Origin: an uncultured Gemmatimonadales bacterium
GTDB lineage: Bacteria > Gemmatimonadota > Gemmatimonadetes > Gemmatimonadales > GWC2-71-9
Direction: 5' to 3'
DNA: 64,000 nucleotides
Assembly: GCA_963821525.1 (NCBI GenBank)
Contig: CAWGED010000014.1
Coordinates: forward strand, 64,001 to 128,000
Shown one piece after another: positions 29,616 to 41,667 of the stretch. The translations under genes were made by a program, and so were the position numbers. Below the pieces are notes generated by a model that was not told the origin of the DNA, made no database searches, and worked only from the letters and a program-made list of their open reading frames with translations. Each line of letters begins with the position of its first letter. Positions within the stretch are counted from its first letter, which is position 1.

Positions 29616-29690
29616 CCTACGGCCCACTCTGTTTAATCACAAAGACAGACCGAGGTGACCCGCGGCAAGGGATCATCCGTGGCAGCGCGA

Positions 29691-30675
29691 TCAGTCCGAT
29701 TGAGGCGCCCGGACAATGCAGCGGAAGCCGACGTGACAGGTGGAGGTGTCGATCGGCTCGGGATAGCGCGCCGCAGGCCGGTAGCGGCGACAATAGTTGG
29801 GCGCGCAGAGATGGGATCCCCCTTTCAGCACCTTGCGGGGGATGCGGATGTTGGGCTGGCAGAGGTCGTAGCTCTCCTCCTCGCGCGGCCCTCTCGGATT
29901 CAGGGGAATACAGCAGGCCTTGGGCGCATCTCCCGGATGGCGAGGCACGTACCAGTCGGTGGTCCACTCCCAGACGTTTGCCGATCATGTCGTAGAGCCC
30001 GTAGCCGTTGGCCGGGAAGGACCCGACCGGCGAGGTGCTCTCGAACCCGTCCTCGACCAGGTTGCGCCAGGGGAATTCGCCCTGCCAGGTGTTGGCCATG
30101 AATCTCCCGCCCGGGAGGAACTCCTCGCCCCAGGCGAAGGCGGCCCCGTCCAGTCCGCCCCGGGCCGCGAACTCCCATTCGGCTTCCGTCGGAAGCTGCT
30201 TCCCTTCCCATCGAGCGAAGGCTTCGGCGTCGGTGTAGGCCACGTGGACCACCGGATAATCCGGCCCGGCGATGCTGGTCTCCGGCCCATAGGGATGGCG
30301 CCAGTCCGCCGCCTTCATGAACTGCCACCAGTTGGTGTAGTCTCGTAGGTCCACTCTCCCAGGCGGCATGGTGAAGACGAGCGAGCCGGCGTAGAGCATT
30401 TCCGGCTTGGCGCCCGGGTAGTGAGCGGGATCGGGGGGAATCTCCGCGAAAGTCTGATGCCCGGTTGCGGCAACGAATTTTTCGAACCGCCCGTTGGTGG
30501 TCGGGTAGCGGTCGATCCAGAACCCGGCAACCGTCACGCGGTGGACCGGACGCTCCTCAGGGTAATGATCTTGGGAACCCATGCGGAAAGTCCCGCCTGG
30601 GATCCACACCATGTCGGGAAAGGGTGGATCTCCGGGCGGGAGGGAAGATGCGGTGAGCGGACTCGATGCAGTCAT
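29691..30675 (-). CDS. formylglycine-generating enzyme family protein; frameshift near 29980
   Basis: LPTEAEWEFAARGG, NGYGLYDM, KGGSHLCAPNYCRRYRPAAR, HVGFRC. Confidence 0.9.
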
Positions 30676-30962
30676 GAACCTCAATCCAGAGCCGGGGACT
30701 GGCTGTTCAGTCTACGTCCCCTGCAATCGGGGTCAAGGGAATGCTACCAAGGGGAGGGAGGGTACGACTAAAGGGTAATCTTCTATTGGTACGACCGTGC
30801 CATATCTTGAAACAGACCGAAGAGCGGACGCGCAATGAGTGGGTAACGCGGCAGCCGGGTCCTCCCAAACAAGCAAGGAAGGGTTTTCTCCTTTCGCTAC
30901 GCCGACGCAGCGAGCGCCAGCGTGGGCTGACGCTTGTACGGAATGGCCAGACCAAGAGCGAC

Positions 30963-32299
30963 ATGAACGAGGGTAGCATGGCGGACGAGCTGGGCACCAT
31001 TGCTCAAGAGGCGTACATCTACCTGTACCCTCTGGTCACGATGGATTTGACGCGCCGACAGCTCACTAACATCGAGTTCGGCCGGGTGCCGGGTCGTGGT
31101 CCGATCAACACCTTCGCCCACATGCGCACCTTCCCCGATGGGGACTTTCGCGATGTGTTCGGCCGAATTTCGATACCCTGTATTCCACCGCCTGGCTCGA
31201 CGTGAGCCGGGAGCCGATGGTAATCTCCGCCCCGGAGGCTCAAGGCCGGTATTATCTGCTGGCGATGCTCGACATGTGGACCGACGTGTTCGCGGTCCCG
31301 GGGAAGCGCACGACCGGAACCTGTCCCGGCCACTGGGCGATCGTCGGGCCGGGCTGGACCCGCCAGCTGGCTGGTGACCTGGAGCGCATCACCTCGCCGA
31401 CGCCATTTGTCTGGATGATTGGGCGGACCCAGACCAACGGCCCGGAAGACTACCCAGCGGTGAAGGCGGTCCAGGACGGCTTCGTCATCACGCCGCTTTC
31501 GCAGTGGGGAAGAGAACGGCACCCGCTCAACGGCTCGATAGATCCTACGGTGGACATGGTGACGCCGCCGCTCGAGCAGATAAACAAGATGCCGCCGCTA
31601 CAGTTCTTCGCCTACGCGGCCGAGCTGCTAAAGATCAATCCACCCCACTTCACCGATCAGCCAATCATTGCCCGGATGAAGCGCCTCGGATTGGCGGTGG
31701 GAAGGAGCTTCGATACCGAGAAGGCGGATCCAGCAATCCGTCGGGCTCTCGAGCAGGGAGCGGCGGATGGATTCGAGGCCATGCAGGCGGCAGACCCGGC
31801 GATGGGGCGCCTGGTCAATGGCTGGCAGATCAACACGACAACGATCGGAGTGTACGGCACCAACTACCTGCAGCGCGCCATCATCGCGATGGGCGGTCTC
31901 GGCGCCGACCTGCCGGAAGACACGGTTTGTCCGTTGTTGCTCACCGACAGCGACGGGAAACCCATCGATGGCAGCAATCGATACCTGCTCCACTTCGACA
32001 AGAGGGATCTCCCTCCAGTCGATGCCTTCTGGTCGCTGACCCTGTATGACCAGAACGGCTTTCAGGTCCACAATTCGATCAATCGCTTCGCGATCGGCGA
32101 CCGGGACGATCTCAAGTACAACCACGACGGGTCGCTCGACCTGCACATTCAGCCGGAGAATCCGGGGAAGGACCAGGAGCGGAACTGGCTGCCCTCGCCA
32201 CCGAAAGGCGCGCTGGGAATAACGATGCGACTCTATTCCCCTCGCCCGGAGGTCATAGATGGCCGCTGGGCGCCGCCGGCGGTGAAACGCGTCGGGTAA
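30963..32299 (+). CDS. DUF1254/DUF1214 domain protein; frameshift near 31160
   Basis: EAYIYLYPLV, NFDTLYS, DMWTDVF, AFWSLTLYD, NWLP, MRLY. Confidence 0.85.
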
Positions 32300-38188: not shown

Positions 38189-38195
38189 GGTACTC

Positions 38196-38230
38196 GGGGA
38201 ACAGGGAACACAGGGAACAGGGAACGGGGA
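38196..38230. repeat. single-arm heptamer array (GGGAACA)
   Basis: GGGGAACA GGGAACA CA GGGAACA GGGAACG downstream of the MerB-like gene. Confidence 0.75.
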
Positions 38231-38253: not shown

Positions 38254-38931
38254 TTACCCAAACGTGTCCGCCTGCGGGTCCCAAAAGTCGCCGTGCAGGC
38301 CGATGCCTTCGAAGATGCTCCGTATCTCGGTTGGCGCGGGTCGTCGAGATTCTGCGCGGAGGCGGCTGGAGTACCAGGTCACCGCCATTTGCCACAATTG
38401 GTCCATTCGCACCGAAGGCCGGCGCGGCGTCGCTCGGCTCGAGCACCACTGGTCGATGAGCTCTTCCGACCGGAAGAAGAGCATAGTGCTTCAGGTGAAG
38501 ACGATGTCCTGCCACCACTTCGCGGCTGGCACCTCACAATGGAACAACCAGTCTGAAGACTCGGGCCCATCGAGCCCGACCGTGAGGCGGAGTGTTTCTT
38601 TCGACTGTTCGCAACGGGAGACCACCTCCGCCGGACGATTGAGCGCGGCGGGAATGCCGAAGGCGTCCCAGGCGCAATTCGCATAGTAGCTCACCCCTGC
38701 GGCCGTCACCCGATGTTGAGTGGGTACTCCGGAGAACGGAGGCGCCATGCGGATGGTTTCGCCGTCCGGCTCCAGTACCAGCAGGCGGCTCCGAGCCAGT
38801 CTCCCGTACGACTCCCGAACCAGGTCAACCGATTCTCCTACGTGTTTGGCCACCGCGTTAATACCGGGAGGCTGGCCTCGTTCGGCCGTGCTCCAGTAGA
38901 TCACGAGCTTCACCTGAGTGTCGAGATCCAC
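38254..38931 (-). CDS. MerB-like organomercurial/organometallic lyase with in-frame UGA (putative selenocysteine at codon 147)
   Basis: ORFs 38491-38949 and 38254-38484 share one frame, joined by TGA-AGC-ACT; YANCAWD motif; DIVFT-U-STMLFF at the second catalytic Cys position; GGAGGA RBS before GTG. Confidence 0.8.
38460..38482 (-). promoter_or_regulatory. candidate bacterial SECIS hairpin
   Basis: mRNA GCUC-UUC-UUCC-GGUC-GGAA-GAGC; G-starting apical loop 19 nt after the UGA. Confidence 0.6.
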
Positions 38932-38964
38932 GGTTCCTCCACCTCTCACTGAATCAGGGAGCGA

Positions 38965-40857: not shown

Positions 40858-41667
40858 TCAGCGCGGCGTCCACTGCGGGTTTCCGCTCAAGAGGCCGCTT
40901 GCGACGCCCGTTTGATAGGCAACGAAGCACCCGAAGGCGAGGCTGAGCAGTCCCGAGGCGATCCGGAGACGGCCGTGGAACCGGCCGGACCGCTGCGAGG
41001 TGATGGCGAAGGGGACAGCAATCAGTTGGGTCAGAAGCATCATGCCGGCCAAAGTGCCCAATCCGAAGATCAACAGGTAGACCATCGACCATTGCGGATT
41101 CCGGATCGTGGTCAGAACCAGCAGCGCGACAGCGGCAGAGCCGGCCAGCCCGTGCACGATTCCTACGACGAGCGGACGGATGACCTGGTAAATGCCCGAA
41201 TGGCCGAGATAACCATCGAGCCACGCCACCGGGGTCCGATCGGCGCGGTGCGGATGCCGCTCCGGATCGTGGCCGTGGTGATGGCTGTGAACGTAGTCCC
41301 CGTGGCTGTGGGGATGCGAATGGGTGAAATCGGCACTCGCGTCGGACCCGGCGCGGTCGCTCATCCATTGCAGAACTCCGGTCAGATTCATGAGTCCAAG
41401 GATGATCAGCATCAAGCCGACCGAAAACTCCATGGAGAGTCCGACCCGAGGCGGAATGACCCAGCCAAACAGGATGATGCCGCCGCCCACAACGAGAATG
41501 GTGAGAGTGTGTCCCAACCCCCACACCGCGCCGATCAATGCCGCGCTCCTGGTAGAACGTTGCCGCGCAACGATCGTGGCAACCGCAATGACATGGTCGG
41601 CATCGGTGGCATGACGCATCCCCAGGAAGAACCCCAGGGCGGCGACGGCGACGAGGCCGGTATCCAT
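40858..41667 (-). CDS. high-affinity nickel/cobalt transporter (HoxN/NixA/UreH-like)
   Basis: GMRHATDADH, GLGHT, His-rich loop, HGLAGS. Confidence 0.88.
   Translation of the reverse strand: MDTGLVAVAALGFFLGMRHATDADHVIAVATIVARQRSTRSAALIGAVWGLGHTLTILVVGGGIILFGWVIPPRVGLSMEFSVGLMLIILGLMNLTGVLQWMSDRAGSDASADFTHSHPHSHGDYVHSHHHGHDPERHPHRADRTPVAWLDGYLGHSGIYQVIRPLVVGIVHGLAGSAAVALLVLTTIRNPQWSMVYLLIFGLGTLAGMMLLTQLIAVPFAITSQRSGRFHGRLRIASGLLSLAFGCFVAYQTGVASGLLSGNPQWTPR

Follow-up and report, generated by a model that had tools for sequence, protein, structure and literature searches.

A stand-alone gene for a MerB-fold protein with a predicted selenocysteine codon in an uncultured Gemmatimonadales bacterium

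The window analyzed here is a stretch of 64,000 nucleotides from an uncultured Gemmatimonadales bacterium (assembly GCA_963821525.1, contig CAWGED010000014.1, positions 64,001 to 128,000 of the forward strand). It carries a gene for a MerB-like protein whose frame contains a single internal TGA, in the context DIVFT-TGA-STMLFFRSEE. The features of the locus are listed in Table 1. A DoxX gene lies upstream, a small membrane-type ORF and an F420-oxidoreductase-like gene lie downstream, and DinB-like genes are also present. A gene for a NicO-type nickel/cobalt transporter with a His-rich loop (40858-41667, minus) lies about 2 kb upstream on the same strand, an arrangement seen in close congeners only. 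Between the gene and the next one (38195-38230) are short GGGAACA-type repeats; their 13-mer, present in 55 copies genome-wide, reaches very high contig depth in soil metagenomes, and they are probably an intergenic repeat family. Elsewhere in the window, a gene with an FGE-sulfatase domain (29617-30684, minus) seems to have its C-terminal part in another frame (ORF 29691-29948), and a neighboring gene pair (30741-32299, plus) resembles one frameshifted gene.

Table 1. Features of the MerB-like locus (positions are those of the window).
Feature	Position	Strand	Comment
Whole gene, MerB-fold (seleno)protein, 225 aa	38254..38931	minus	GTG start at 38931; TAA stop ending at 38254
In-frame TGA, codon 147, predicted Sec	38491..38493	minus	Column of MerB Cys159 and of the SaoL Sec
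Cys86	38674..38676	minus	Column of MerB Cys96; 75/75 aligned members
Asp89	38665..38667	minus	Column of MerB Asp99 (proton donor); 75/75 aligned members
Cys107	38611..38613	minus	Column of structural MerB Cys117; Asp in some members
SECIS-type hairpin, 6-bp stem UCUUCC/GGAAGA, GGUC loop 38471-38468	38462..38477	minus	Family-conserved register
Purine-rich Shine-Dalgarno-like stretch before GTG	38935..38947	minus	Putative, by sequence inspection

The initial annotation had joined two open reading frames of one frame into a 225-aa protein and supposed that standard gene calling cuts the gene in two. Translation confirmed the protein and placed it on the minus strand, which had been left unstated, and an ORF scan indeed broke the gene into two pieces, 38491-38949 and 38254-38484. 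The read-through product scored 100.8 bits against Pfam MerB (PF03243; membership threshold 27) and filled profile positions 1-125 of 126, while the halves scored 63.6 and 17.5 bits. The protein consists of an N-terminal winged helix (about residues 1-65), a catalytic domain and a C-terminal extension (about residues 196-225), and the break divides one domain through its active site. A plus-strand reading of 38254-38931 was rejected because its product is not family-like. A promoter and terminator scan gave results at chance level. Short-read contigs agree with the TGA at codon 147. One independent contig (X16 record 18) had 0 differences over 38451-38705, and a second contig spanning the codon (X15 record 10) had two differences, neither of them at the TGA. 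Both contigs come from RNA libraries of other samples and are uninformative on transcription, strand and level.

A protein search returned 3718 relatives at E≤0.001, and 116 of the best 120 terminate exactly at residue 146. One such shortened entry is HEY7029239.1, a 146-aa protein named 'organomercurial lyase'. The family is widespread, and databases hold its members as truncated proteins. Among the genome-collection relatives, TGA occupied the column in all of the best 80 of 128 loci (34-92% identity), and the frame stayed open for 72-89 codons past it in 79 of them. A second scan was seeded with 53 of 72 truncated representatives and so favors truncated forms by design; it matched at least 592 stretches of the genome collection, with Cys and Sec forms partly unseparated. 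Among the 79 new loci retained, TGA is present in 78 and the remaining contig ends at the site; the C-terminal profile was filled in 75 of the 78. Overall, 158 of 159 loci share the stop at this column, at identities as low as 34%. These 158 loci are spread over 12 named phyla; Chloroflexota (41), Acidobacteriota (36), Gemmatimonadota (31) and Actinomycetota (24) contribute most, and the nearest named relatives (86-92%) are Gemmatimonadales. A codon-blind profile search of 301 genomes of the organism's own phylum found 39 places in 38 genomes. One TGA was present at 33 of these places; five of the other six comprise four with TGC and one with the TGA plus a second, upstream TGA. Within the order, 7 of 41 relatives have the TGA gene.

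Relatives that are not truncated were informative on the residue at this column. The 150 best 50%-cluster representatives gave 155 aligned stretches, of which 72 stop at residue 146, 64 are full length and 19 are partial. The full-length relatives have Cys (57), Trp (3) or another residue (4) at the column, so the expectation that homologues would show either Cys or TGA there was borne out. Every one of the 75 members of the family alignment has C86, D89 and U147, and H131 and C163 are nearly invariant. The counts of relatives, hosts, selA, MerA and hairpins, the family alignment and two rows of the tree described below include the unpublished genomes G018, G047, G068, G071, G674, G676, G683 and G706. 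No conclusion depends solely on these eight genomes.

These data bear on two ways in which the TGA might not encode selenocysteine. The gene could be a nonsense pseudogene, an assembly error or two genuine small genes. The assembly does have indel errors (its selB lies in three frames) and no selD was found in it, and a small number of family members (L092, L168, L204 and L367) are disrupted. One of these, a member on plasmid 1 of the cultured organism Rubrobacter radiotolerans (L204, 1456-1922) annotated as an 89-aa merB that terminates at the UGA, is also frameshifted and is thus a pseudogene. However, such a reading is refuted by the conservation of the stop over phyla with downstream homology and hairpin retained. 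The position of the break within a single domain and the agreement of the short-read contigs also speak against it, and we regard it as extremely improbable. Alternatively, a different residue could be inserted at the UGA, whether Trp, Gly or, by way of a UCA tRNA, Cys, or the genome could be recoded. The database proteins P0014 and P0084, in which the column is W or G, would fit this; four Trp, one Gly and a few other residues occupy the column in database proteins, and these probably reflect alternative-code gene calls or errors. Against it, TGA is also the terminal stop of 42 of the 80 genes in the first set and hence a functional stop in the hosts, the full-length relatives have Cys at the column, the only UCA tRNA detected is tRNA-Sec, and the hairpin described next fits the SECIS model. 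This possibility is likewise negligible in our judgment.

The initial annotation had described a hairpin after the UGA with GCUC/GAGC and UUCC/GGAA stems. The hairpin exists, and its GGUC loop begins after 19 nt as claimed, but the register conserved in the family is UCUUCC/GGAAGA and the proposed pairing is an alternative one. The hairpin overlaps codons F152-E157. Folding of the single sequence was modest (-10.7 kcal/mol for 37 nt; z -2.0, with 7 of 200 shuffles equally good), and the minimum-energy structure has an 8-bp stem and a 7-nt loop in a different register. Single-sequence folding was therefore rejected as proof of a SECIS element. The comparison among loci was more telling. All six stem pairs are kept in 146 of the 158 UGA loci and five of six in the other 12, the loop is GGTC in 142 of 158, and nine Cys-codon controls retain 1-5 stem pairs. 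In 44 sequences of less than 75% identity, codons 152-157 show the strongest synonymous constraint of the gene: R154 is CGG in 39/39 (background 0.35), S155 is TCG in 43/44 (0.37) and E156 is GAA in 40/44 (0.41). Every stem cell pairs in 55 aligned rows, with wobble changes and one compensatory change (C-G to A-U). Since this covariation is thin, the evidence for the hairpin is nucleotide conservation. According to the accessible text of PMC13188914, bacterial SECIS elements have a loop of 3-9 nt with G in the first two places, a spacing of 16-37 nt and a stem of 4-16 bp. The family hairpin resembles that model in its 4-nt loop starting with GG, its 6-bp stem, its 19-nt spacing and its energy below -7.5 kcal/mol; it differs from the model, as far as that text gives it, in being fixed to the nucleotide level across phyla. 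As judged by this conservation, the hairpin appears to behave as a SECIS element.

We looked for the selenocysteine machinery in the genome, which is 81% complete, and in the hosts of the family. The genome has selA above the cut-off and a tRNA-Sec with a UCA anticodon. Its selB (G000:C5:974880-976691) is split over three frames by two frameshifts, which are likely indel errors in the assembly, as the gene is whole in four congeners. No selD was found in the assembly. The 4-kb regions around selD of four congeners are also essentially without counterpart in it, which points to an assembly gap. Thus, a check for selA, selB, selC and selD gave selA and tRNA-Sec, a frameshifted selB and no selD in this incomplete assembly. 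In contrast, selA, selB and selD are intact in all four congeners, and selB and selD are above the cut-off in five of five relatives that bear the gene. In the first set of loci, 50 of 50 hosts have selA, 49 of them above the cut-off (50 of the 80 loci given). In the second set, 45 of 50 have it (50 of the 79 loci given), and the completeness of the five without selA is not stated. Within the order, selA occurs in 39 of 41 relatives irrespective of the TGA gene, so finding the two together in close kin is barely informative. TGC copies are present in two 99%-complete genomes that lack selA, and two other TGC carriers have selA. A pattern scan for further Sec genes in the genome gave 12 matches, of which only the present gene is protein-like; the pattern is too narrow to describe a selenoproteome. 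Taken together, the conservation of codon and hairpin, the Cys of homologues at the column and the presence of selA and tRNA-Sec support the earlier proposal of a Sec-coding UGA. We conclude that the gene is almost certainly an intact, stand-alone selenoprotein gene of a MerB relative in which UGA encodes Sec, a conclusion drawn from sequence comparison.

The structure of the protein was modeled with Cys in place of Sec from 75 sequences (AlphaFold, pLDDT 96.1). Foldseek gave 11 matches below E 0.001, all of them MerB; the fold match has an E value of 2.5e-11. In a wide structure search, the matches were MerB2 (5c17; Z 18.8, 187 residues aligned, rmsd 3.2) and MerB (3f2g; Z 14.8), and those that followed were winged helices only. 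The model thus assigns the protein to the MerB superfamily fold. Compared with MerB (EC 4.99.1.2; PDB 3F0O, 3F2G and 5C17; MerB3; the MerBA fusion), the fold is common over residues 1-195, at a structural identity of 16-20% to the solved enzymes, and residues 196-225 are without counterpart in solved MerB. An alignment with mer-operon proteins and a SaoL placed C86/D89/C107/U147 in the MerB columns C96/D99/C117/C159 (numbering of PMC8261052). The two assignments made at first sight, the YANCAWD motif as catalytic Cys and Asp and the UGA at the position of Cys159, were both upheld by it. Hence, the C96, D99 and C117 equivalents are kept and a chalcogen residue stands at 159, whereas the predicted Sec replaces Cys159, there is no equivalent of Cys160, and about 30 C-terminal residues are additional. 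The protein scored 49 bits against the NCBIfam MerB model NF033555 (cut-off 200) and 57 bits against NF009710 (cut-off 193). The characterized lyase MerB3 also falls below these cut-offs (60-62 bits), so activity is compatible with a low score.

Sec at the position of MerB Cys159 is already known from SaoL, as reported in the accessible part of 10.1101/2022.07.06.499078. The two proteins share the MerB fold, the Cys96 and Asp99 equivalents, Sec in the Cys159 column and truncation at the UGA in databases. Beyond this, they differ. The identity is 23%, and the window protein scored 38.3 bits on the SaoL model NF040728 against a cut-off of 140, while a true SaoL control scored 175 bits; none of the 75 family members was better than E 9e-17. 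The motif is TU or AU here and CU in SaoL, and 78 residues follow the Sec here compared with about 50 in SaoL. The hosts are Gemmatimonadota, Acidobacteriota, Chloroflexota, Actinomycetota and others, whereas the SaoL hosts covered in the accessible text are fermenting anaerobes. The nine-gene SAO neighborhood described there is absent here, with no conserved operon in its place, and the family occupies a separate tree branch. The SaoC marker had no match in the own genome and relatives, and the intended positive control was likewise without a match. An identity with SaoL was ruled out by the score, the TU motif, the separate clade and the missing SAO neighborhood.

The tree was built from 77 rows and 186 columns (LG+G4), with both catalytic chalcogen columns left out. 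The window protein lies in a 58-row clade (99/96) whose members all have the C-terminal extension: the Sec family itself, the Cys forms related to it and a sister group. Neither SaoL nor the mer-operon enzymes belong to this clade. Sec versus Cys at the 159 column requires 11 changes. Because the outgroup is not one clade, SaoL sits on a long branch and the root is unreliable, this number does not distinguish gain from loss of Sec. The related Cys forms are often without Asp99 and have C, E, S or G instead, which suggests that the clade does not hold to one chemistry. Cys forms on Paraburkholderia and Ralstonia megaplasmids (L120, L121; 98 Ralstonia records), annotated as hypothetical proteins, have Cys at the Asp99 place (C-x-W-C). 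The contexts of Cys forms were seen in two plasmid records, and no mer genes are present in the annotated one.

Other MerB-like genes with UGA codons were also found. A search for the DNA pattern of UGA plus hairpin gave at least 120 loci, and 99 of the matches listed reach at least 50 bits on the family profile. The sister group, which has Glu at the Asp99 place, is represented by 49 loci among the matches listed; a second TGA stands at the Cys96 column in 38 of these, and TGC or TGT in the remaining 11. Members of this sister family (L209, L233, L252, L257, L329-L332 and others) read Q-U-G-F-E, with another UGA 65-70 codons on. Their first UGA has its own conserved hairpin-like stretch, and Cys forms occur in Rokubacteria and Acidimicrobiia. 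A further double-UGA group, A-A-U-A-x-D ... F-U, appeared in a 301-genome sample around a Desulfobacteraceae genome, in the phylum of G091 (L334, L337, L339, L343, L347, L350-L354, L356 and L357). It forms its own tree branch (100/100) and looks unrelated to the Glu-type sister group. More single-UGA MerB-like genes with an L-U or T-U motif (L328, L333, L338 and L341) fall outside both SaoL and the present clade, and one branch of them adjoins MerB3.

We compared these groups with the literature. In a May 2026 table of 119 prokaryotic selenoprotein families, SaoL is the sole MerB-like entry (PMC13188914, Table 1, within its accessible text). Both MerB-type representatives of the deep-Sep supplement are CU proteins (PMC12013277), and the accessible part of PMC9312934 gives the same MerB-type accession. 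BSepDB covers 64,000 genomes by homology, and its MerB-like entry may include such genes, as far as the available part of PMC13326102 describes it. In the literature searched, mostly outside subscription journals and with PMC13745706 covered by a term search, no account of a MerB family of the TU type or with two Sec turned up. By sequence, the gene appears to represent a second, broader Sec-MerB lineage beside SaoL.

The gene context was then considered as a source of functional clues. The best neighbor recurring across phyla is a GNAT acetyltransferase at 9 of 158 loci, with none above it, and the neighborhood was rejected as a functional clue because it shows only lineage synteny. In Anaerolineales (L096-L109), the gene lies directly after an HMG-CoA reductase gene in 12 loci, which is lineage synteny only. 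The initial annotation had seen no merA, merR or merT in the window, and a wider search agreed. With eight query sequences counted, merA among them, no merR/T/P/E/D gene or MerA-level match was found at any of 159 loci, 102 of them at least 8 kb long. Within the own genome, searches for merA, merR, merT and merE at E≤1e-5 gave only oxidoreductase matches of 24-33% and a MerP-like match of 35%. The gene therefore differs from merB in standing outside a mer operon, and merA is rare in the hosts: MerA was above its cut-off (454) in 2 of 56. Many hosts have oxidoreductases at 200-402 bits, below that cut-off, among which divergent MerA may be present. The gene is a mobile-looking orphan, so its context yields no substrate.

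In the MerB mechanism, as given in the available part of PMC10114901, two cysteines bind R-Hg+, and Asp99, protonated with the help of Cys159 and water, cleaves the carbon bond; Cys159 gives the proton to Asp99. MerA next takes the Hg(II), perhaps aided by Cys160 (same source, same part). For the window protein, we propose that SelB on the hairpin would bring Sec-tRNA(UCA) to the UGA, giving the 225-aa MerB-fold protein. The metal site would consist of Cys86 as thiolate, Sec147 as selenolate and Asp89. Cys86 and Sec147 would bind an organometal cation, either R-Hg+ or an alkyl or aryl of a comparable soft metal or metalloid; the metal-carbon bond would be weakened, and protonation of the carbon by Asp89 would set R-H free. 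Cys159 supplies the proton in MerB, but a selenol would be deprotonated from the outset, and the proton must come from another source. Selenium might provide tighter capture at trace concentration. With neither a MerA partner nor a Cys160 equivalent, the protein would pass the metal to cellular thiols or keep it. MerB without MerA would free toxic Hg(II) (PMC8261052). On the basis of fold and catalytic residues, organometal or carbon-metal lyase chemistry is somewhat probable, and we lean to the same modest degree towards Sec and such lyase-type chemistry occurring together. Weighing against it are the structural identity to solved MerB, only about 19%, the rarity of merA in the hosts and the varied residues of related Cys forms at the Asp99 place. 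That mercury is the natural substrate seems rather doubtful.

The higher affinity of selenium for mercury means that the protein could equally be a one-shot trap. More broadly, the selenoprotein may be a binder and not a catalyst, namely a high-affinity scavenger, chaperone or sensor of soft metals or organometals, with the winged helix possibly linking metal binding to DNA or to a partner. The 54 hosts without merA and the missing Cys160 equivalent are consistent with this, and so are MerB variants that bind other metals and the barely active MerB2 (PMC8261052 and PMC10114901, in their available parts). The N-terminal domain also resembles regulator winged helices (Z 7-9.6), though MerB has the same domain. 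However, the proton donor Asp89 is invariant in 75 of 75 members, and no regulator-like or transporter-like gene recurs in the context; we consider a binder unlikely. Another possibility is that the MerB fold serves a selenoenzyme with a different chemistry, such as Cys-Sec redox cycling or C-S, C-Se or C-As cleavage in ordinary metabolism. The patchy distribution over at least 12 phyla with no tie to mer genes would agree with this, as would the 38 carriers among 301 own-phylum genomes, which are too many for polluted sites alone. The sister groups with U...E...U or C...C...C sites and the clade-specific C-terminal extension point in the same direction, and most selenoproteins are redox enzymes, according to the accessible text of PMC13188914. 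Nevertheless, no metabolic operon indicates such a substrate and MerB is the sole full-coverage fold match, and this alternative is also improbable in our estimation.

The lyase reading, in its mercury form, has consequences for how the family is counted. A survey that required Cys159 counted a single MerB genome for Gemmatimonadetes and no MerB genome for Acidobacteria (PMC8261052); because of that requirement, genes like the present one are invisible to mercury-cycle gene counts. The same survey found more than half of merB genomes to be without merA, and the activity of these is unreported. One tentative reading, which we consider doubtful to unlikely, makes the window gene the type member of a large, hidden clade in uncultured soil, sediment and sponge-associated bacteria, whose proteins would be selenium-armed organomercury demethylases acting without MerA. 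If it were true, surveys requiring Cys159 would discard the members and undercount methylmercury-degrading capacity, and the MerB fold would be one in which Cys and Sec were exchanged repeatedly, with recoding of one metal ligand or of both. The natural Cys/Sec series in one fold (C/C, C/U and U/U) lets the role of orphan MerB proteins be tested, together with the effect of selenium on carbon-metal cleavage.
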